NCBI GenBank assembly: GCA_951804945.1
Contig: OX638158.1
Coordinates: 7,068,001 to 7,132,000 of the forward strand
Source: Podarcis cretensis
Taxonomy: Eukaryota
Reading direction: 5' to 3'
Length of the DNA: 64,000 bases
Shown here piece by piece: positions 5,594 through 50,900 of the stretch (positions are counted from its first letter, which is position 1; each line of letters opens with the position of its first letter). The notes under the pieces are model-generated. The model was not told the DNA's origin, made no database searches, and worked only from the letters and a program-made list of their open reading frames with translations. Both the position numbers and the translations under genes were made by a program.

Positions 5594-5798
5594 CAGATAG
5601 GTAGCCGTGTTGGTCTGCCATAGTCAAAACAAAATAAAAAAATTCCTTCCAGTAGCACCTTAAAGACCAACTAAGTTAGTTCTTGGTATGAGCTTTCGTG
5701 TGTATCTGAAGAAGTTGCATGCACACGAAAGCTCATACCAAGAACTAACTTAGTTGATCTTTAAGGTGCTACTGGAAGGAATTTTTTTATTTTGTTTT
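5594..5798 (+). mobile_element. Penelope-like foldback fragment with minimal hammerhead ribozyme
   Basis: 77-bp inverted arms (5626-5702 / 5722-5798). Core CTGAAGA...GAAAGCTC. 12-bp TSD AAATTCTAATGT at 5582-5593 and 5799-5810. Confidence 0.8.
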
Positions 5799-13209: not shown

Positions 13210-14258
13210 CAGTGGTACCTCGGGTTAAGTACTTAATTTGTTCCGGAGGTCCGTTCTTAACCTGAAACTGTTCTTAACCTGAAGCACCACTTTAGCTAAT
13301 GGGGCCTCCTGCTGCTGCCATGCCACCGGAGTACGATTTCTGTTCTCATCCTGAAGCAAAGTTCTTAACCCGAGGTACTATTTCTGGGTTAGCGGACTGA
13401 CCAGTCTGTAACCTGAAGCGTATGTGTCAGAGCTGCCTCTAGGTCCCAGCTCACAGAGGACCAACGCTAGGCTGTCATAATGTACAAAAGTCTTTATTGA
13501 AGTTCAATTTCCATTTCAAAGCCGCAGCGCGCAGCCCTACGTCTTAAACCCTAGATCGGCGAAGTCCCGTCTGAGTCTCCTCCCCTCTGACACCAGTTTA
13601 AGATCCTAGCCCTGCTCCACCTTTTCCGCTGCTCTCTTCTCCTCTGGGTCCTCCTGCCCGCTGGGGCATTCCCCTTTCTGGACTCCTCTGACGCTGAGTC
13701 GCTTAGCTCCTCCCCCTGCCTCCGGCGGGCTTTAGGACCCGGTTCCCAATCCTCATTCTCTGCTGTCCCACGCTCCTGTACATTTGAACTTGCCTCTCGC
13801 GCCAACCCAGTGACCTTCCTCCTGACCGTTACACTACTTCTGTCACTGCTTCCCTCTTCCGGGATACTGGCCGGATCTGACCTCCCCTCCGTTGTCTGAC
13901 TCTCCGATGGAGGCGTGGTCAGCCCTGACTCCTCTCCTCTCCCTGCTGGGGGAGACGCTACTCCCGATACCTGTGACTCTTCCCCCCCACTATGCCCTGG
14001 TGGGGAAGCTGGTCCTGATTTCCAACTGCTGCTCTGGGAGTCCCTGCTGGCCCCTTGCTTCTGGGGTGTCCCCCTTGGGACCCCCCTTGCCCTGGCCACC
14101 GGCGCCCCCTTCTGTGAATCTTCCGATTCGCTGGAGAGGCTCATGGAATCCCTCGGTCCACTGTCCTCTTCTCCTACGCTCCCCTCGGATTCTTCCCCTT
14201 CGCTCTCCATCTCCTCTCTTCCCTGTGCCTCTGCTCCTGAGCCCCTGAGGTACCACTG
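13210..14258. mobile_element. MITE family A interrupted by a solo LTR
   Basis: MITE body 13210-13424; terminal ggtaccactg at 14249-14258. Confidence 0.85.
13425..14248 (-). mobile_element. Solo LTR (~820 bp) of a more distant Gypsy family, nested in a MITE
   Basis: Begins tgtcag and ends cccctga (terminal CA and TSD apparently lost by a cctga microhomology deletion). Splits a MITE. AATAAA on minus near 13493-13498. Carries a long acidic/Ser/Arg ORF. Confidence 0.75.
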
Positions 14259-24612: not shown

Positions 24613-27508
24613 TTTTTTTTTTTTAATAATATTTATTAAATTTTTGTATAACCAATAAAAAACATACATATTAACATAATATTTTCCATTATCCACATTT
24701 CATTCTCAACTTTGGACTTCCTCACATCTCTTGTTCCTGCTTTCTAAACATAAATTTTACCAGCAAATTATTAACTTAGTTTAATTCGTATAATATAATT
24801 TTCCAATATTTAATGTCTCAAATTCTGGGATTTAACATACTCTTATTGAAGCTTAATCATAAAATATTACTTATCCAAAATTTAGCTTTTCATCTTCCAA
24901 TTAAATTTAAATTTATATTCTTTATAACTAGTTTGTTGGAGCCGTGTTTTTGCTAATCTTACATCTTTCTTAACATTCATGCAATTTACAATATTTTTGT
25001 AGATAGTCCTTAAATTTCTTCCAGTCCTCCTCCACCAGTTCTTCTCCCAGGTCTCGGATTCTGCCAGTCATCTCCGCCAGTTCCATATAGTCTATCAGTT
25101 GCATCTGCCATTCTTCCAGTGTGGGTAATTCTTGAGTTTTCCAGCTTTTAGCGATGAGTATCCTTGCTGCTGTTGTAGCGTACATAAAAAAGGTTCGATC
25201 CTTCTTTTGCACACTCTGACCAACAATGCCCAAGAGAAAGGCCTATGGTTTCTTAAGGAAGGTATACTCAAATACCTTTTTCAGTTCATTATAAATCATT
25301 TCCCAGAAAACCTTCACTCTAGGGCAAGTCCACCAGAGGTGAAAGAATGTTCCTTCAGCTTCTTTACACTTCCAATATTTATTATCAGACACATGGTATA
25401 TCTTTGCAAGCTTGACTGGAGTCATGTACCACCTGTATATCATTTTCATAATGTTCTCTTTCAAGGCATTACATGCCGTAAATCTCAAACCTGTGGTCCA
25501 TAACTTTTCCCAGTCAGCAAACATGATGTTATACCCTATATCCTGTGCCCATTTTATCATGGCTGATTTGACCGTTTCATCCTGTGTATTCCATTTTAAC
25601 AGCAAGTTATACATTCTTGAAAGTATCTTAGAGCTGGGTTCTAACAATTCTGTTTCTAACTTTGATTTTTCCACCTGGAATCCTATCTTTTTATCCAACT
25701 TAAAAACTTCTTTAATCTGAGCATAATGTAGCCAGTCTCGCACTTTATCTTTTATTTTCTCCATACTCTGCAACCTCCAGTTATCTCCATCTTTTTCTAT
25801 TATTTCCCAATATTTCGGCCATTTGGCCTCCATATTAAGTTTTTTCAGGGCCTTAGCCTCCATTGGTGATAACCACCTTGGGGTCTTGTTTTCCAATAAG
25901 TCTTTATATTTCAACCAGACATTAAATATTGCTTTTCTGACAACATGGTTCTTAAAATTCTTATGTATTTTAGCCTTGTCATACCACAGATATGCATGCC
26001 ACCCAAATGCATTGTTGAATCCTTCCAAATCTAAAACATCAGTGTTCTCAAGAAGTAGCCAGTCTTTCAACCAGCAGAAAGCTGCTGATTCATAATACAA
26101 CTTTAGGTCTGGCAAGGCAAATCCCCCTCTTTCTTTAGCATCAGTTAATATCTTAAACTTAATTCTGGGCTTTTTGCCCTGCCAGACAAATCTTGAAATA
26201 TCTCTCTGCCACCTCCCAAAACACTCCATTTTGTCCACAATCTGCAAAGTTTGAAACAAAAATAACATTTTTGGCAATACATTCATCTTAATAGCAGCAA
26301 TACGTCCTGTCAAGGAAAATTTCAGTCTTGACCAAACATCTAAGGTAAAGGTAAAGGTACCCCTGCCCGTACGGGCCAGTCTTGACAGACTCTGGGGTTG
26401 TGCGCCCATCTCACTCAAGAGGCCGGGGGCCAGCGCTGTCCGGAGACACTTCCGGGTCACGTGGCCAGCGTGACATCGCTGCTCTGGCGAGCCAGAGTCG
26501 CACACGGAAACGCCGTTTACCTTCCCGCTGGTAAGCGGTCCCTATTTATCTACTTGAACCCGGGGTGCTTTCGAACTGCTAGGTTGGCAGGCGCTGGGAC
26601 CGAGCAGCGGGAGCGCACCCCGCCGCGGGGATTCGAACCGCCGACCTTTCGATCGGCAAGCCCTAGGCGCTGAGGCTTTTACCCACAGCGCCACCCGCGT
26701 CCCGACCAAACATCTAGATCCCTTTTAATTTCAGACCAACATTTTTCATAATTATCTTTAAATAAATTCCTGTTCTTCGCTGTTATATTTACCCCTAGGT
26801 ATCTCACTTTTTTAACCACATTTAATTCTGTCTCTTTCTGAAACCTTTCTGATTCTGAAGAAGTCAAATTTTTTCTAAAACCTTGGTTTTTTGCTTATTA
26901 AGTTTAAATCCCACCACTCGACCAAACTCATAAATCAGTTGTAATACCCTTTTAGTACTAGGCTCTGGCTCCTGTAGGGTCAAAACTAGGTCATCTGCAA
27001 ATGCTTTCAGTTTATATTGTTTCGCTCCGACCTGGATACCTTCCACCAACCGGTCTCCTCTGATCATATTCAAGAGCACTTCTAGGACCGATATAAATAA
27101 CAAAGGGGATATAGGGCAACCTTGTCGTGTTCCTTTTTCAATTCTAAACTCTTCTGTCACCACATTGTTGACTATCAATTTTGCCTTTTGCTCTGAATAA
27201 ATTGCCTCTATCCCATTGTAAAACCCCCGCCCCACTCCCATTCCTTCCAAATTTTTCTTCATAAACTTCCAGGAGATATTATCAAAGGCCTTCTCCGCGT
27301 CTATAAATATCAAGACTGCTTTTGTATTAATGTTTGTTTGCAAGAGTTCCAAAATATCAATAATGTTCCTTGTGTTTGCAAACAAATGTCTACCTGGGAG
27401 AAAGCCTGCCTGGTCCTTATGAATTACTTCATTTAAGACTTTTTTAAATCTACTTGCTAAAATGTCTGCAAATATTTTGTAATCCACATTTAGGAGGGAG
27501 ATGGGGCG
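24613..27508 (-). mobile_element. 5'-truncated L1-clade LINE (ORF2 RT to C-terminus, 3'UTR, polyA)
   Basis: RPISLLNVDYKI, DAEKAFD, GTRQGCPISP, FADD, GGFALPDL and a C-terminal Cys/His motif. AATAAA + polyA at 24613-24640. 18-bp TSD AATATTCTTCCCTTTATC at 24595-24612 and 27509-27526. Frameshifts near 26870 and 25245. Confidence 0.95.
26343..26703 (-). mobile_element. Sauria SINE nested in the L1
   Basis: GGGACGCGGGTGGCGCTGTGGG head, B-box GGTTCGAATCC, (ACCTTT)n tail. 13-bp TSD GACCAAACATCTA at 26330-26342 and 26704-26716. Confidence 0.93.
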
Positions 27509-28374
27509 AATATTCTTCCCTTTATCCAACTAATTTTTAGTTACCAAATAGTTCCTGGTTCACCACAGGGGCATCTTTCTTTCTCACAGCCCAGAAGAAT
27601 TTGTCTCAAGTATTTCAGGTAACAACTCACAATACTATATTCTGTATAAGCCACATTGACCAACAACATCCTTTATAGTCCATTGCCAAATTGTTGTTTT
27701 CGTTGTTAATCTATACTCCGCCTTTTTCCCTGACAGGGGCTCAAGACAACTTACAGATAAAAATAAGAACCACTAAAAACATAGAAAAACTGATCATTAA
27801 AAAAACAACTAAACATTGGCCAAATTCAGCATTGTTCAGGTACTCTTAGGAAGCCTTAAGAACACTTCACTTCTACATCATGCAACTAATCCTGCATCAA
27901 CTCGGATTCAGGTTAGGGAGGGAATTTTAAGAAATACTAATCCTATAAACAGGGAACAAAGCAGCAGTTGGAAATGATACTTACACAATATTTCTGAATA
28001 AAAAGCCATTGATCCATCTATCCTCGTCCTCACACAGCCAGGCTCAGCTCTTACTTTCGTCAATTAAATGTGTGTTGAGGTTACGTTTACTATTCCTTAA
28101 ACCTTGGGATTCAACATGAAACATGGTATATACATAAAATATAAAAACAGAAAAACAACTGCTGCATGAAACAGAGGTTGACCGAGAAGCAGAGAGTTTC
28201 ACCTTGATAGGCCTCTGAAAATCAAAGCTATTCCATCTGAATTGGGAGGGCTTATATTAGGACATTTGAAATATATGAAGCTGTCTTGTACTGAGACCAC
28301 TAAGTCCACCTATTCCAGTGCTCAACTGGTAGCAATTCTCCGAAGTCTCCTGCAGGTTTTTCCTATAAACTGCT

Positions 28375-28784
28375 TGTGGTGGGATAATGAGCTGCTTGTG
28401 CGTTAAAGCTTGATCCCTCAGAGCTCACTCAGTGTAGTGAAGCCCTGCCTTGAGCGGAGCCCTTCGGGGTGGCTCCGTCAGTCGCTGGTAGAATCTGACA
28501 GTGGGCGTTTGCGGAAACGTTTCCAACATAAAAGCTGTTTCACGGACATGCGCCTCCTGGATTCCCTGCGTGACAGTTTCCGGCGAGGGGTGGGGGTCCT
28601 TAAAGGATGTCCTGATACCTCCTCACTGTTCTCACTGGAAGTATCCCAGAGCCTCCCCTCCGACTCCCTTTCCTTTGGAGCTCCCGCACTCCCCCTACTG
28701 GTTCCCTCTTCTGCTGAAGAAGTGTCTCTCCTATTCTCCTGGAGCCTTCTCACCACCTGTCCTTCCGATGGCAGTTCCCTGACA
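28375..28784 (-). repeat. 3' LTR of the Gypsy element
   Basis: Direct repeat of 33475-33884; preceded in element sense by purine tract GGGGGGGAGGTGGA. Confidence 0.96.
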
Positions 28785-31700
28785 TCCACCTCCCCCCCAG
28801 GGCCCCCTTCACCCCCTCCCGCCTCTTCTCTTACTGGCGGCGAGGACGGAAATCCCTGGAAGGAACTCCCCTCATCCTCCGAGGATTCAAACACTTCTAA
28901 CCACGGCCTTCCGTCTCTTTCCCCATCTTCCTCTCCTTCGTCGGAATCTGTTTCCACCTCCACCCCCGACTCTGGGAACCCTTCAAACTCCCCTTCCTCA
29001 TCTGTAGTACCGAAGTGTTCCCTCCTAAATCTTGCCACTGGTTGTGGTTTTCTTGGGAAACGCCGATGAAACGTTTCTATTAAAATCTCGTCTTTGACTT
29101 CCTCTGCCGGTACCCATGTGTTTTCTGACTCTTCCTCCCCCTCCCATTCTACCAAGTATTCCACCTGATTTCCCTTCCACCTGGAATCAATGATCCCTGC
29201 CACATCCATGTTGCGTTCTCTCTCTTCTATGACGGGTGTCCGGGTGACCTCCCTCTCATGTTCCCCCCACTCACGTCCCTCTCTGTACGGCGACAATAAT
29301 GACCTGTGAAATACTGGGTGCAATTTCATGTGACTGGGCAATCGGAGTTTGAATGCTACTGGGTTGACCTGCTGTATGACCTCAAAGGGTCCCAACCGTT
29401 TGGGTCTCAATTTCTTACACCCTCCCTTGAACGGCAGTCCTTGGGTGGATAGCCACACCCGGTTACCCACCCTTATGGTTTCGCCTTCCCTCCTATTTCT
29501 GTCTGCTTGCTTCTTATATTCTTCTTTGGCTTTCTCTAAGTTGAGTTGGAGCTGACGGTGGATCGCTTCCATCTCTTCAACAAAATTTTCCGCTGCAGGT
29601 ACACTCCACCTCCCCCCTCCTTCTCCTGGAAACGCCCGAGGATGACACCCATAATTGGCTAGAAAGGGACTCATCCCTGTGGACACGTTCTCCGCGTTGT
29701 TGTAGGCAAATTCTGCCAGAGGTAACCTGTCTACCCAATCAGTTTCTCTGTCCTTTACATAACACCTCAGATATTGTTGCAAAACCCCGTTTGCCCTTTC
29801 TGCTTGCCCATTTGTTTCTGGGTGCCTGGCGGTGGAAAAACTTACCTCCACATGCAACATGCTCATTAGTTTCCTCCAGAACCTGGAAGTAAATTGTTTT
29901 CCTCTGTCGCTCAAAACCCTCAAGGGGGCGCCATGCAACCTAAAAATGTGCTTCACAAACAACCTTGCGGTTTCTTCCGCTGTCACTGCATGTGAACAAG
30001 CTATAAAGTGGCACATCTTAGTTAGTAGATCTACCACCACCATGACCGCGGTTTTCCCTTTGGATCTCGGTAGATCGGTCATGAAGTCTATGGATACCAT
30101 CTCCCATGGCCTTTCTGGGGTGGGTAAGGGTTCTAATAACCCTGCTGGCGCCAACCTCTCTCCCTTTGCTCTTTGGCACCTGTCGCATCCCCTGACATAC
30201 TCCCGCACGTCTTCCCGTACCTTGGGCCACCAAAACTCCCTGGTAACCAACCACATGGTCTTGTGCTGCCCGAAGTGCCCCGCCGTGGGGCTGTCATGCA
30301 ACTGTTTGAGCACCCGCCCTCTTAGTTCCCCATCTGGTATGTAGAGTGCCCCTTTGTAATATAGTTTTCCGTTCTTTTCCTCAAAACCCCCTGCGTTCTC
30401 ACCTGTCTCCCTCAGTTCCCTAAGTTTTTCTTGGGCATATTCATCGTTCTCAATACCCTCTACCAGTTCTCTTTGCCCCACCAATGCCGCCCCACAAACC
30501 CAGTGGTCCTCCGAGATGATATGTCTTTCTTCCGCCCCTCCTTCCCCCTCCAAGTACTCAGGTTTTCTGGAGAGAGCGTCCGCCCTGACATTCTCAGCCC
30601 CTGGCACGTAGCGAATTTCAAAATTGAACTTGGAGAACTCTTGCGCCCATCTTACTTGTCTCTGGTTCAATACTCGGGCTGTCCTCCAGTATTCTAGATT
30701 TTTGTGGTCTGTCCGCACTTGAACCTTGTGTTGCGCCCCAATCAACAGGTGTCTCCATCTCTTGAACGCTTCGTGGACGGCGAGTAATTCTCTGTCGTAC
30801 ACTGTATAATTCCTCTCAGATTTGTTCAATTTCCTCGAGAAGAAGGCACACGGTCTCCATTCTGACGTATTCGGTCCTGGCTGCAGGAGCACGGCGCCCA
30901 CCGCTCTGTCAGACGCGTCGGTTTCCACCCTCATCGGCTGCTGCAGATCCACGTGTAAGAGTTGTTCTTCCGAAGCAAACGCCCTCTTTAAACTTTCGAA
31001 AGCTCGCTGCGCTTCTTCCGTCCAGACAAATTTCTTCTTACTGCTGAGACAATCCGTGATGGGGGCTGTTAAGTGGGCGAAGTTCTTGATGAACTTCCGA
31101 TAGAAGTTTCCGAACCCCAAAAACCTCTGCACATCTTTCTTAGTTTTCGGTGGCCTCCATTCCAGCACCGCTTGCACCTTGCTAGGATCCATGGCCAGCC
31201 CCTTGTCCGACAACCGGTATCCTAGGAATTCCACCTCCCTGGTGTGAAACTGACACTTCTCCAGTTTCACCCACAGCTGGTTTTCTTGCAGTTTCCTCAG
31301 TACCTCTTGTACATCTCGCACATGCTGCTCTTCATCCTCTGAGTACACCAGTACATCATCCAAGAACGCAGCGCAGTTCTTGTACAGCAATGGTCCTAGT
31401 ACGTGATTCATGAATGATTGAAATACTGCCGATCCCGCCTGGAGGCCGAAAGGCATAACGCAGTACTCAAATGCTCCCAAGGGGGTGAACATAGTGGTTT
31501 TCCACTCATCTCCCTTTCTCATACGTATCAGGTTATACGCCCCCCTCAGGTCCAGCTTGGTAAAAATCTTCCCTTTTCTCACCCGGGTCAGAATGTCATC
31601 GATTCTGGGCATAGGGAAAGTCACGGGTTCGGACACTGCGTTTAGGGCCCGGAAGTCCACAATTAATCTCGGTTTGTCCGAATTTTTTTTGTCCACAAAG

Positions 31701-32476
31701 AACACTGGGCTACCCCCCACCGCTCGTGACTCTCTGATGAACCCACGCTTGAGGTTTTTGTCAATAAACTCCCTTAGCTCCTGCATCTCCCTGTCAGACA
31801 TTGCATACACCTTGCCCACTGGCAATTGTGCTCCTGGGAGTAAGTTGATTTGGCAGTCAAAGGGTCTGTGCGGGGGTAGTTTATCTGCTTCCCTTTCGCT
31901 GAAGACGTCGGCAAAATCTGCATATTGTCGTGGTACCCTACCTTGATCCGTTGCTTCTATCTTTGCTAACGTGGCCTGAGTGCCTACTTGGCCCCCTTTT
32001 TCTGTGCAGTGTCCCATACAATGTGCTGACCCAAAGGAAACCACTCTCTGATGCCATCCCACAAGCGGATCATGCAGCGCTAGCCAGCTCATCCCCAAAA
32101 TGATGGGCGCTCCTCCCAAAGTGGCTATATTAAACGCTATCAGTTCCGTGTGTCTTGCCACCCTCATTGTCATGGGGACAGTCTGCTGGTTTACTTCTCC
32201 CCCCAACAGCGCCCTCCCATCAATCGTGGTCACCTGCAGGGGATTTTTTAAAGGGATGGTCTGTATCTGATGTGCGGCTGCAAACTCCTTACTCATAAAG
32301 TTGCAGGAGCTGCCTGAGTCTAATAGCGCCTTCACCTTTAGTGGGTGTCCGTTTGCCAGCTCCAGCAATACCTCTATTACAAGAGCTGGTCTTGGGGGTT
32401 CTGGCGTGGGCACATTTACTGTTCCTTGGCCTGGCTGCTGTGCCCCGTCGGTGGCAGCCAGGCGTTGGCTTTTACT
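28478..32476 (-). CDS. pol: Pol: protease-RT-RNase H-integrase-chromodomain plus acidic/LTR-encoded tail, reached by -1 frameshift
   Basis: ALLDSG protease, FLDD RT, VETDAS RNase H, HHCC + DDE integrase, GPF motif, chromodomain (~29046-29209). The frame is -1 relative to gag and open from a TAA at 32485-32483; the GTG at 32413 is only the ORF-finder start. Confidence 0.95.
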   Translation of the reverse strand, partial: SKSQRLAATDGAQQPGQGTVNVPTPEPPRPALVIEVLLELANGHPLKVKALLDSGSSCNFMSKEFAAAHQIQTIPLKNPLQVTTIDGRALLGGEVNQQTVPMTMRVARHTELIAFNIATLGGAPIILGMSWLALHDPLVGWHQRVVSFGSAHCMGHCTEKGGQVGTQATLAKIEATDQGRVPRQYADFADVFSEREADKLPPHRPFDCQINLLPGAQLPVGKVYAMSDREMQELREFIDKNLKRGFIRESRAVGGSPVFFVDKKNSDKPRLIVDFRALNAVSEPVTFPMPRIDDILTRVRKGKIFTKLDLRGAYNLIRMRKGDEWKTTMFTPLGAFEYCVMPFGLQAGSAVFQSFMNHVLGPLLYKNCAAFLDDVLVYSEDEEQHVRDVQEVLRKLQENQLWVKLEKCQFHTREVEFLGYRLSDKGLAMDPSKVQAVLEWRPPKTKKDVQRFLGFGNFYRKFIKNFAHLTAPITDCLSSKKKFVWTEEAQRAFESLKRAFASEEQLLHVDLQQPMRVETDASDRAVGAVLLQPGPNTSEWRPCAFFSRKLNKSERNYTVYDRELLAVHEAFKRWRHLLIGAQHKVQVRTDHKNLEYWRTARVLNQRQVRWAQEFSKFNFEIRYVPGAENVRADALSRKPEYLEGEGGAEERHIISEDHWVCGAALVGQRELVEGIENDEYAQEKLRELRETGENAGGFEEKNGKLYYKGALYIPDGELRGRVLKQLHDSPTAGHFGQHKTMWLVTREFWWPKVREDVREYVRGCDRCQRAKGERLAPAGLLEPLPTPERPWEMVSIDFMTDLPRSKGKTAVMVVVDLLTKMCHFIACSHAVTAEETARLFVKHIFRLHGAPLRVLSDRGKQFTSRFWRKLMSMLHVEVSFSTARHPETNGQAERANGVLQQYLRCYVKDRETDWVDRLPLAEFAYNNAENVSTGMSPFLANYGCHPRAFPGEGGGRWSVPAAENFVEEMEAIHRQLQLNLEKAKEEYKKQADRNRREGETIRVGNRVWLSTQGLPFKGGCKKLRPKRLGPFEVIQQVNPVAFKLRLPSHMKLHPVFHRSLLSPYREGREWGEHEREVTRTPVIEERERNMDVAGIIDSRWKGNQVEYLVEWEGEEESENTWVPAEEVKDEILIETFHRRFPRKPQPVARFRREHFGTTDEEGEFEGFPESGVEVETDSDEGEEDGERDGRPWLEVFESSEDEGSSFQGFPSSPPVREEAGGGEGGPGGEVDVRELPSEGQVVRRLQENRRDTSSAEEGTSRGSAGAPKERESEGRLWDTSSENSEEVSGHPLRTPTPRRKLSRRESRRRMSVKQLLCWKRFRKRPLSDSTSD
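32408..32476 (-). promoter_or_regulatory. -1 ribosomal frameshift signal with H-type pseudoknot
   Basis: Stem 1 GCCTGGCTGC/GCAGCCAGGC (32463-32454 / 32438-32429); stem 2 GGGCACA/TGTGCCC (32445-32439 / 32414-32408); 6-nt spacer after A_GTA_AAA. Confidence 0.8.
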
Positions 32477-33429
32477 TGCTCCTTAGCTCCTTCTCCCTCC
32501 TCCCCAACAGCTCCCGCCATTCCTTGCCATTCCTTTCTTTGCGGACAAACTCTGGCAAAATGACCTGGCTGTTGGCAGAGAAAACATTTCTTGGCGCCTT
32601 TTCCCTCCTTCTTCCGCCCTTCACTGGGGTTTGAAATTGCGCGCGCGCGCGCTGTTCCGATTTCCATCGGCTCTGCTGGCAGAGAAGGCTGCTCTGGAAT
32701 CTCTGGAATGCGGAAATCCCTCCAACGCTCCCCTTTCCCTTCCCGCTTCTCCAAGGCTCTGGCCTCCTGGCGTGATCCTATGGCCAGCGCTGATTTGGTC
32801 AGATGGTCCATAGACTCCGCCCTGGGCCCCCGGGAAAGTTCGTCTTTCACTGCCGAAGATAGTCCTTCTTCGAACAGCATTTGTATCGGTTCCGCTGACA
32901 AATCCCAACCTAATTTATGGATCAACATGGTGAACTCAGTCCAGTACTCACGGACAGATCGGTTCCCTTGTTTACACGCCATTAACTGCCTGCGCGCCAC
33001 TCCCTGCTCAATCTCGCTGGAAAACATCAGATCCATGGCGCGAAAAAACTTCCTTGTGTCCCTTAGGGCTTCATTATTGGCTGCCATTAGTGGCCTCACC
33101 CAATCTTTTGCCCCGCCTTCGAGATGCCCAATCACATAAGCAACCCTCGAATCCTCATCAGGAAAATCATCAAACTGCAGATTGAGGGCATATTGCATCT
33201 CTGTCCTGAAGGCTTGATAATTCCTGGGATCACCCCCAAACTTCTGCACCAGTCCAGGCACTTTCCTCGAGAGCTGGGCGGCTTTCCCCTTTTCTGCATC
33301 ATGAGCCCTCCTCTCCTCAAGCCTCGCCGTTTGCAGAGCTAACTGTACCTCCAACATCCTGTACCTTTCTTCCAGGCTAGGACCGGCTGCAGCTGCTCCC
33401 CCATCTCCGGCTCCGGCTGGGTTGCTCAT
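32416..33429 (-). CDS. gag: Gag (sushi/PEG10-like capsid + CCHC zinc knuckle), 337 aa
   Basis: Capsid motifs (KFGGD, QGNRSVREY, LFEEGLSSAVKDEL), EPMEIG motif and CFLCQQPGHFARVC knuckle. Confidence 0.95.
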   Translation of the reverse strand: MSNPAGAGDGGAAAAGPSLEERYRMLEVQLALQTARLEERRAHDAEKGKAAQLSRKVPGLVQKFGGDPRNYQAFRTEMQYALNLQFDDFPDEDSRVAYVIGHLEGGAKDWVRPLMAANNEALRDTRKFFRAMDLMFSSEIEQGVARRQLMACKQGNRSVREYWTEFTMLIHKLGWDLSAEPIQMLFEEGLSSAVKDELSRGPRAESMDHLTKSALAIGSRQEARALEKREGKGERWRDFRIPEIPEQPSLPAEPMEIGTARARAISNPSEGRKKEGKGAKKCFLCQQPGHFARVCPQRKEWQGMAGAVGEEGEGAKEQVKANAWLPPTGHSSQAKEQ

Positions 33430-33461
33430 GATGCCTCTCTTTGCACAAGCTGCTTTCAGGG

Positions 33462-33472
33462 ACTGTCAGATT
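33462..33472 (-). promoter_or_regulatory. Self-priming primer binding site (Tf1-type)
   Basis: AATCTGACAGT, 2 nt after the 5' LTR, is perfectly complementary to ACTGTCAGATT at 33602-33592 within the LTR. No TGG tRNA-type PBS. Confidence 0.85.
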
Positions 33473-33474
33473 GC

Positions 33475-33884
33475 TGTGGTGGGATAATGAGCTGCTTGTG
33501 CGTTAAAGCTTGATCCCTCAGAGCTCACTCAGTGTAGTGAAGCCCTGCCTTGAGCGGAGCCCTTCGGGGTGGCTCCGTCAGTCGCTGGTAGAATCTGACA
33601 GTGGGTGTTTGCGGAAACGTTTCCAACATAAAAGCTGTTTCACGGACATGCGCCTCCTGGATTCCCTGCGTGACAGTTTCCGGCGAGGGGTGGGGGTCCT
33701 TAAAGGATGTCCTGATACCTCCTCACTGTTCTCACTGGAAGTATCCCAGAGCCTCCCCTCCGACTCCCTTTCCTTTGGAGCTCCCGCACTCCCCCTACTG
33801 GTTCCCTCTTCTGCTGAAGAAGTGTCTCTCCTATTCTCCTGAAGCCTTCTCACCACCTGTCCTTCCGATGGCAGTTCCCTGACA
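33475..33884 (-). repeat. 5' LTR of the Gypsy element
   Basis: Direct repeat of 28375-28784; starts TGTCAG in element sense. Confidence 0.96.
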
Positions 33885-44951: not shown

Positions 44952-45410
44952 GTCCTGGAGGAAGAACTGTGAGGGCGGAGACTCCATCAGGCAAGGCCTC
45001 TTTCCACCTGCCTTGTCCTACCATCTAGTCTCTGTTTCTCAATTTGTATTATATTATTTTATGTACTGTGGCTTGCCATTGTTTTATTGATTATAGTTTA
45101 GAAATTATTTATTGTGCTTAACTTTTATGTTATTATTATTATTTAATACTATTCTAATGATTGTTGAATGTTCCTTTTTTGATGTAGGTTGCCGATTTTA
45201 AAGTTATGTTTTATTATCACATTTTTGTATTGCATTAGATTGTTATAAGATGTACATTTCTTCAGCTTGTAAACCGACTTGAGTATTGTTAGATAAAAGA
45301 CGGTATACAAATTAAAAATGATGATGATGATGATGATGATGTTAAAAGATATAGGTGGAAAGCGGCCTTGCCTGATGGAGTCTCCGCCCTCACAGTTCTT
45401 CCTCCAGGAC
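44952..45410 (+). repeat. LINE-like 3' fragment with (ATG)n tail and 58-bp terminal foldback
   Basis: L2-like tail tgtaaaccgacttgag...cggtatacaaattaaaa(atg)8; arms 44952-45009 and 45353-45410 are reverse complements with 1 mismatch. Confidence 0.85.
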
Positions 45411-50514: not shown

Positions 50515-50900
50515 CCTATATCTTTTAACATCATCATCATCATCATCATTTTTAATTTGTATACCGTCTTTTATCTAACAATACTCAAGTCGGTTTACAA
50601 GCTGAAGAAATGTACATCTTATACCAATCTAATGCAATACAAAAATGTGATAATAAAACATAACTTTAAAATCGGCAACCTACATCAAAAAAGGAACATT
50701 CAACAATCATTAGAATAGTATTAAATAATAATAATAACATAAAAGTTAAACACAATAAATAATTTCTAAACTATAATCAATAAAACAACGGCAAGCCACA
50801 GTACATAAAATAATATAATACAAATTGAGAAGCAGAGACTAGATGGTGGGACAAGGCAGGTGGAAAGAGGCCTTGCCTGATGGAGTCTCTCCCCTCACAG
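50515..50900 (-). repeat. Inverted copy of 44967-45355
   Basis: About 7 substitutions plus one ATG unit over ~385 bp by manual alignment. Confidence 0.9.

Follow-up and report, generated by a model that had tools for sequence, protein, structure and literature searches.

The pol gene of an intact, self-priming Ty3/Gypsy chromodomain element in Podarcis cretensis continues through its polypurine tract (PPT) and 307 bp of its 3' LTR, and this read-through is selected as protein, not accidental. Pol read-through is a trait of the lineage and was common at the DNA level to three lizard families, designated A (the family of the element described here), B and C.

Structure of the element and its LTR-coded tail

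The window (the whole stretch of 64,000 nucleotides that was analysed) contains the element on its minus strand, complete with both LTRs. Its features are as follows.

33475..33884, minus strand: 5' LTR, 410 bp, TG...CA, with the TSD AGCAG outside
33460..33472, minus strand: self-priming PBS (fold z = -3.39; primer/PBS co-variation among 67 copies)
32416..33465, minus strand: gag frame with Retrotrans_gag and a CCHC knuckle; its overlap with pol is 67 nt, in a -1 relation
28478..32482, minus strand: pol frame, 1334 codons, with protease, RT, RNase H, integrase, SH3, chromodomain and tail
29060..29206, minus strand: chromodomain, Pfam Chromo PF00385, residues 1094-1141, E 9e-10
28850..29014, minus strand: two tandem FxGF units, each an aromatic residue, an acidic Ser/Thr linker and FxGF, upstream of the PPT
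28785..28798, minus strand: polypurine tract, in-frame reading GGEVD
28375..28784, minus strand: 3' LTR, 410 bp, with U3 at 28784-28503 and R/U5 from 28502 (boundary inferred)
28598..28786, minus strand: acidic/Ser-rich spacer, LTR-coded, 63 residues, pN/pS 0.54, length changes in threes
28505..28597, minus strand: basic motif, LTR-coded, TPTPRRK...RRRMSVKQLLCWKRFRKR, pN/pS 0.25 (0.14-0.36), pS 0.65
28492..28502, minus strand: self-primer at the 5' end of R, translated within PLSDS
28478..28480, minus strand: pol stop TGA, inside R

The two LTRs differ by two mismatches and the 5-bp TSD flanks the element at both ends; the retrotransposon is young. The order PR-RT-RH-IN was recovered for pol in a Pfam scan, and the -1 overlap suggests that pol is reached by frameshifting from gag. 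The chromodomain lacks the first and third aromatics of the cage as defined in the accessible part of PMC3605345. The closest named proteins were from Podarcis muralis, with 83-87% identity. Contigs from two runs presumed to be RNA covered most of the element; strand, start and end are not readable from them. None of the signals AATAAA, ATTAAA and AATACA was found in the LTR of the window element.

The 11-nt self-primer forms an 11-bp duplex with the PBS in the window copy. Four primer variants were observed among the 67 copies with a readable 5' LTR, each with a matching PBS, and primer and PBS were fully paired in 62 of them when G-U pairs were allowed, with compensatory variants. Pairing of the PBS with R of the element itself puts the presumed transcription start site at 28502, and the statements that pol crosses the entire U3 and stops inside R depend on this position.

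With U3 and R delimited in this way, the read-through was as described in an earlier note on this DNA, which had claimed that pol passes the PPT and all of U3 and stops in R after about 102 LTR codons. We counted 102 LTR-coded residues, including the codon that straddles the boundary. Among the first 63 of these are 14 D/E and 10 S, in agreement with the Ser/Glu-rich stretch reported there, and the peptide quoted after it was exact; the last 39 contain 14 K/R. The TGA occupies the positions 22 to 24 nt past the presumed start site, at the foot of a predicted hairpin in the window copy, where the earlier note had put it at about 24 nt. The order along the tail is chromodomain, two FxGF units, a Gly run coded by the PPT, acidic spacer and basic motif. 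The LL codons of the basic motif overlap a TATA-like run about 30 nt upstream of the start site, and the last residues of the tail share sequence with the self-primer.

Conservation of the open frame and selection on its amino acids

The 30 closest copies examined, out of 40 listed among 2351 candidates, were all open across U3; 29 shared the stop of the window element and one read 20 codons past it. Since these copies are 98-100% alike, they are weak proof, and a sample was therefore drawn blind to the tail. A 20-base pattern at the PPT/LTR junction had 673 exact matches in the genome, of which the first 80 among the 100 listed, all on C1 and C2, were taken. The LTRs of these copies were 69-99.5% identical to the window LTR, and the frame was open to the family stop in 73 of the 80. 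Four of the seven exceptions were open in their own 5' LTR, indicating that they were broken after or during insertion. Two were broken in both LTRs, suggesting that RNAs without the tail can be copied, presumably in trans, and the 5' LTR of the seventh was absent from the stretch examined.

The earlier note had suggested stop-codon avoidance, indels in multiples of three and dN/dS in the pol frame as checks of the coding function, and each of them came out in its favor. The first 94 LTR codons were free of stops in the pol frame in 74 of the 80 copies, compared with 9 and 2 copies for the other two sense frames, which had on average 2.0 and 3.5 stops, and with 0, 0 and 15 copies for the antisense frames. 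The open pol frame in the LTR exceeds chance. Among 78 anchored copies, 76 had a U3 length, from the LTR start to R, that differed by a multiple of three, as opposed to 48 of 66 copies for R/U5.

For the analysis of selection, clustering of the 73 open copies at 93% identity gave nine groups, with one real copy standing for each, and Nei-Gojobori pN/pS was pooled between the nine subfamily representatives with intervals from a codon bootstrap. These intervals are too narrow, because the pairs share ancestry and are not independent. The pN/pS was 0.15 for the integrase core, 0.22 for the chromodomain and 0.31 for the post-chromodomain region; within the LTR, the acidic spacer had 0.54 (0.41-0.70) and the basic motif, 31 codons long, had 0.25 (0.14-0.36). 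In the other sense frames the ratio was 1.09 (+1) and 1.79 (+2). The three antisense frames yielded 0.88, 2.34 and 0.39; the third of these values presumably arises because that frame shares third positions with pol. What is robust here is how the frames differ from one another. The pS of the basic motif equals that of the integrase core (both 0.65), and hence the DNA of the motif is not frozen as a promoter element.

An independent gene within the LTR was also considered and was rejected because the sole Met of the LTR frame is not conserved: 8 of the 9 representatives have V, I or L in its place.

The same data bear on the possibility that the frame stays open as a by-product, either of a stop-poor, purine-rich promoter U3 or of a late stop that shortens the 3' UTR against RNA decay, with an inert peptide as the outcome. 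The positions of the LL codons on the TATA-like run and of the last residues on the self-primer imply some constraint at the DNA level, and the acidic spacer is constrained weakly. However, the synonymous sites of the basic motif are as divergent as those of the integrase core while its amino acids are kept, no such signal appears in the other frames, synonymous changes are present even within the TATA-like LL codons, and the other sense frames are not stop-poor. This explanation is largely refuted by the pN/pS values, and we regard it as very improbable. The openness of the frame, its conservation and the selection on its amino acids are demonstrated results.

Long-tailed relatives and comparison with known systems

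The pol of family B is 54% identical to that of the window element and has 1556 codons, with an LTR of 784 bp. In all 8 full elements of this family, pol enters the LTR by 219 codons, and the stop lies about 20 nt past the family's own self-primer. In a second B subfamily, whose LTR is 63% alike, 24 of 30 loci were open over 211 codons, these loci being a sample biased by retrieval with a tail query; four of the remaining loci had early stops and two were not parsed. Comparison of the two B subfamilies gave a pN/pS of 0.48, and comparison within the second gave 0.31. The tails of A and B end in a common R-x-R-x6-L-x-W motif, in which the two Arg, the Leu and the Trp, together with a Ser, were invariant across 28 aligned sequences of both families, and the Trp codon lies 23 nt upstream of the likely primer start in both. 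Family B has no counterpart of the second basic cluster in the bipartite NLS pattern of family A. A profile of the A/B motif had five matches among 1.84 billion proteins; four were pieces of these elements (one from Podarcis lilfordi) and the fifth was repeat-like and due to chance. The window contains another B-type LTR, at about 13426-14250, whose frame is still open.

In family C, pol enters the LTR by 115-120 codons and ends in RRSARLKA. The read-through was complete in 14 of the 27 loci that could be parsed (29 given), whereas 11 slipped at a run of G upstream of the LTR and two had stops; the LTR frame taken alone was open in 21 of 24 parsed loci (28 given). At the protein level only, the ending RRSARIAAK, preceded by a similar acidic stretch, was seen in two Anolis proteins (P0078 and P0080). 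Another long-tailed protein (P0079) had no close family in this genome, where its best match was 47%, and twelve older distant loci (L192-L203) had no parsable LTR pair.

Long tails are not the rule among the homologues retrieved. Of 111 new homologues, 107 were parsed and 97 of these end no more than 180 residues past HPVFH, compared with about 270 in the window element. Short read-through may also occur in fish chromoviruses. A quick tree built from 31 RT-IN sequences placed all 14 long-tailed rows on one side of a branch with an SH-aLRT of 99, a grouping that may reflect only the squamate clade since the fish and frog rows were left out.

By all tested features, the window element is a Tf1/sushi-type chromovirus: it has TG...CA LTRs, a 5-bp TSD, self-priming, the domain order and a C-terminal chromodomain. 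These traits are shared with the Tf1/sushi group of fungi and vertebrates, to which Tf1, Tj1, sushi-ichi and the Amn elements belong and for which PMC6317226 and PMC4600332 describe self-priming. The tail sets the window element apart, as most of the homologues retrieved end soon after the chromodomain and here about 270 residues follow HPVFH.

The earlier note had loosely likened the tail to nef or sag. The 3' U3 DNA is indeed both promoter template and coding sequence in all these cases. However, HIV nef and MMTV sag are separate accessory genes that overlap U3, each an ORF with its own start, whereas the U3 frame here is the in-frame end of pol, and for this reason the comparison was wrong.

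A closer precedent exists in plants. According to the portions of PMC3059260 and PMC3605345 that were available, pol enters the 3' LTR in group A of the CRM elements, whose LTR encodes the CR motif, a putative centromere-targeting domain, and the coding region also crosses into the 3' LTR in the Tekay-clade Bingo elements of Beta vulgaris. Like the window element, both belong to the Ty3/Gypsy chromovirus lineage and have a coding region that crosses the PPT into the 3' LTR. Given this precedent in CRM group A and some Tekay elements, as those sources present it, the architecture is less unusual than the earlier note had assumed. That note had also overlooked that read-through is common to three lizard families and that the tail in the LTR comes after FxGF motifs. 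The same portions describe a tRNA-Met primer in CRM and a CR motif that replaces the chromodomain, whereas the window element has a self-primed PBS and retains a (degenerate) chromodomain before the PPT. It also differs from CRM in adding FxGF units and in reading through all of the inferred U3, a comparison made at the level of architecture. On the one chromosome sampled, family A is dispersed. The CRM and lizard tails are probably convergent. No vertebrate case of pol entering the LTR was found in the literature consulted, in so far as its text was available; this literature was weighted to open access, with the original Tf1/sushi and chromovirus surveys and the repeat databases outside it, and the accessible part of PMC3601003 added nothing on vertebrate read-through. 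The window case is apparently a vertebrate, convergent counterpart of the LTR-encoded integrase tail of CRM, with host-like motifs.

Candidate host-like motifs and the proposed role of the tail

Two parts of the tail resemble motifs of host proteins. Both FxGF motifs were present in all 68 family A copies open across that stretch. In the text available to us, PMC9987994 defines the TND-interacting motif as a helix, an acidic linker of 8-16 residues and FxGF, and PMC8022399 gives D/ExExFxGF as the TND/IBM consensus. The FxGF units fit the TND-interacting definition by sequence pattern: each has an aromatic helix residue, an acidic Ser/Thr linker of 8-9 residues and FxGF, here in tandem. Several subfamilies match D/E-x-E-x-F-x-G-F exactly, and in the window copy one position of the consensus is occupied by Gly. 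These candidate motifs lie upstream of the PPT, outside the LTR, and their binding to LEDGF/HRP2 is putative. HIV integrase also engages this host domain, with its folded core and not with such a motif. A PDB sequence search with the FxGF stretch found no match, and a PDB profile search returned one 8-residue Numb peptide (E 0.14) and did not retrieve the known TIM chains.

The second resemblance is at the basic end. In the part of PMC12487698 that was accessible, the HMGN/Dsup motif RRSARLSA binds the nucleosome acidic patch. The family C ending RRSARLKA matches it at 7 of 8 positions, the Anolis proteins have RRSARIAAK, and the Arg-rich tails are disordered as in HMGN. In contrast, the family of the window element has RRESRRR...LLCW and RRSARLSA is absent from it; binding of the acidic patch by any of these elements is putative.

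Structural searches with the family A tail gave little. A profile of the basic motif had no match below E 0.2 among solved structures, only chance-level ones with E of 0.23 or more, and ESM Atlas had no usable match for residues 1150-1334. The last 48 residues were predicted with low confidence (pLDDT 64, pTM 0.21), with one helix over VKQLLCWKRFR. A complex of the motif with the genome's own H2A-H2B scored 0.00 in a prediction that did not use the alignment, which counts neither for nor against binding, and AlphaFold 3 likewise fails on HMGN2 according to the available text of PMC12487698.

The family A tail contains a pattern that fits the bipartite NLS consensus. We take its Arg-rich part together with KRFRKR to be a putative bipartite NLS and the TPRR to be a putative CDK-type site. 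A possible likeness of the basic motif to the CENP-C motif, in having an Arg nine residues before a Trp, was set aside; the basic motif is without the Pro and the Tyr/Trp pair of CENP-C. The earlier note had proposed that promoter DNA doubles as coding sequence for a basic NLS/chromatin-binding tail. The coding part of this claim is supported by the selection at the protein level. A bipartite NLS pattern is present in family A, and nuclear import and chromatin binding are a matter of probability, as set out below.

From these sequence patterns, we propose that the tail likely gives nuclear import and chromatin tethering of the integration complex. The genomic RNA of an LTR element spans R to R with the 3' U3 included, so that translation of Gag-Pol can extend over the frame. 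After the shift from gag into pol, ribosomes would read to the stop in R, and the tail would remain on integrase after cleavage by the protease. This integrase tail would be long and disordered, with the acidic spacer distancing the basic motif from the chromodomain. The Arg-rich part and KRFRKR would serve as a bipartite NLS adjoining the CDK-type TPRR site, whereas the arginines and the short LLxW helix would touch nucleosomes or a host protein bound to chromatin. Placed in U3, the module would add no genome length, and both LTRs of each new copy would inherit it.

The insertion patterns differ between the sister families. Telomeric flanks were found for 0 of 77 family A copies, and 53 family A junctions were dispersed along C1. 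Family B was strongly enriched at chromosome ends, and of its clustered copies, the 20 that were picked all lay within TTAGGG-type arrays. Since A and B share the end motif but not the location, the motif cannot alone set the target, and specificity, if any, must reside in the parts not common to both.

This pattern would suit a tail that acts as a nuclear-import signal only, leaving the choice of target to the chromodomain and the upstream FxGF units. The bipartite NLS pattern of family A and the presence of the FxGF units in every open copy would also suit it. On the other hand, an NLS needs no invariant L-x-W, and L-x-W is kept in family B without the second basic cluster, suggesting a further docking role; family C and Anolis, moreover, carry the HMGN-like RRSAR at the same place. 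We therefore consider a role restricted to import unlikely.

Integrase C-termini have roles in packaging, priming and reverse-transcription steps, and the basic tail could instead bind the element's own RNA or cDNA in the particle, serving packaging, self-priming or reverse transcription and not targeting. The density of K/R in the last 39 residues would be in keeping with this, and a self-priming element may need a nucleic-acid chaperone. However, a CCHC knuckle is already supplied by Gag, close relatives mostly have short tails, and the host-like motifs RRSARL and FxGF point to host partners. Such a role is less probable still than one in import only. Import together with tethering is favored by the combination of the HMGN-like RRSARLKA in family C, the NLS pattern and the conserved L-x-W; the putative centromere-targeting domain that CRM carries at the corresponding place also speaks for it.

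A wider reading is that these elements form a squamate chromovirus lineage with modular, host-mimicking integrase tails, composed of FxGF units and either an HMGN-like or an R-x-R-x6-L-x-W motif in U3, and that the tails steer sister families to different chromatin, one of them to TTAGGG telomeres. We put this forward tentatively, as somewhat more doubtful than not.

To our knowledge, the choice of insertion sites by vertebrate LTR retrotransposons has been little studied and few young families are on hand. Family A has at least 673 PPT/LTR junctions, many of them in full-length elements with identical LTRs, and encodes a selected integrase tail in its own promoter region, while its sister family B accumulates in telomeric repeats with the same architecture. 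The candidate motifs are short and alignable, which makes targeting testable with peptides. One stretch of DNA serves as promoter, TATA-like run and self-primer and at the same time as protein-coding sequence, and annotation based on LTRs truncates such integrases. If the modular-tail reading is true, these elements would be a vertebrate counterpart of the targeting by plant CRM and yeast Ty5, and a retrotransposon would be using the host tether that HIV uses.

The FxGF units and the end of the pol frame

In the family A element, the self-priming Ty3/Gypsy chromovirus of the window, two short repeated units were observed upstream of the polypurine tract (PPT):

28850-29014, minus strand: a tandem pair of FxGF units that carry acidic linkers, located between the chromodomain and the PPT

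Judged from their sequence, these units match the description of LEDGF/HRP2-binding motifs in the literature. Both were kept in all 68 open family A copies, and one unit is retained in the sister family B.

In family C (L153-L177 and L184-L190), pol continues 115-120 codons into the LTR and ends in the motif RRSARLKA, with the stop preceding the TATA-like run of its own LTR rather than lying in R. The LTR frame was open in 21 of the 24 parsed loci, but in many copies a slip occurs within a G run upstream of the LTR. The Anolis proteins P0078 and P0080, listed with family C together with P0077, terminate in RRSARIAAK, and their LTR boundary was placed from the peptide only. A further LTR of the family B type is present in the window:

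13426-14250, minus strand: LTR of another family B subfamily, with no internal sequence in view

Its frame is still open over about 230 codons and ends in RKRWSRARILNWCQRGGDSDGTSPI. Elsewhere in the window, a 372-nt inverted pair was found whose arms (44967-45338 and 50529-50900) are 98% alike and 5190 nt apart, as well as an 80-nt near-perfect hairpin at 5626-5798.

Gag/pol overlap, 3' end and a deleted copy

The gag and pol frames of the family A element overlap as follows:

32416-32482, minus strand: gag/pol overlap of 67 nt in a -1 relation

No classic slippery heptamer was seen in this overlap. While family B carries an AATAAA about 55 nt past its own stop, an AATAAA-type signal is absent from R/U5 of family A (28375-28477, minus strand). 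About 850 bp from the 3' end of the element lie LINE ORF2 fragments (25243-27529, minus strand), identified as reverse transcriptase-like by reading the translated sequence. One family A copy, L097, has a large internal deletion which is identical in both LTRs and removes most of U3; this copy was probably copied in trans.

Family B in telomeric repeats

TTAGGG-type repeats flanked all 20 family B copies (L264-L283) taken from clusters at chromosome ends and on chromosomes C3 and C9, the flanks being degenerate in two. Cluster copies were inserted in the telomeric repeats in both orientations, with target-site duplications mostly of GTTAG/CTAAC. Among the matches listed, 38 of 110 young copies lay less than 100 kb from a chromosome end, compared with an expectation of 0.21. 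Of the 114 older copies, 79 lay within 1 Mb of an end, where 2.8 would be expected; both tallies cover contigs of known extent. For comparable insertion into telomeric repeats, a fungal non-LTR case was the sole match in one search of the literature.

The 77 family A target sites showed a weak palindromic preference, roughly G/C-T-N-A-C/G, and the telomeric duplication of family B agrees with it. Of eight further family B copies, a 186-bp satellite contained one, and the remaining seven lay in other DNA. Residence of family B in telomeric repeats is not exclusive.
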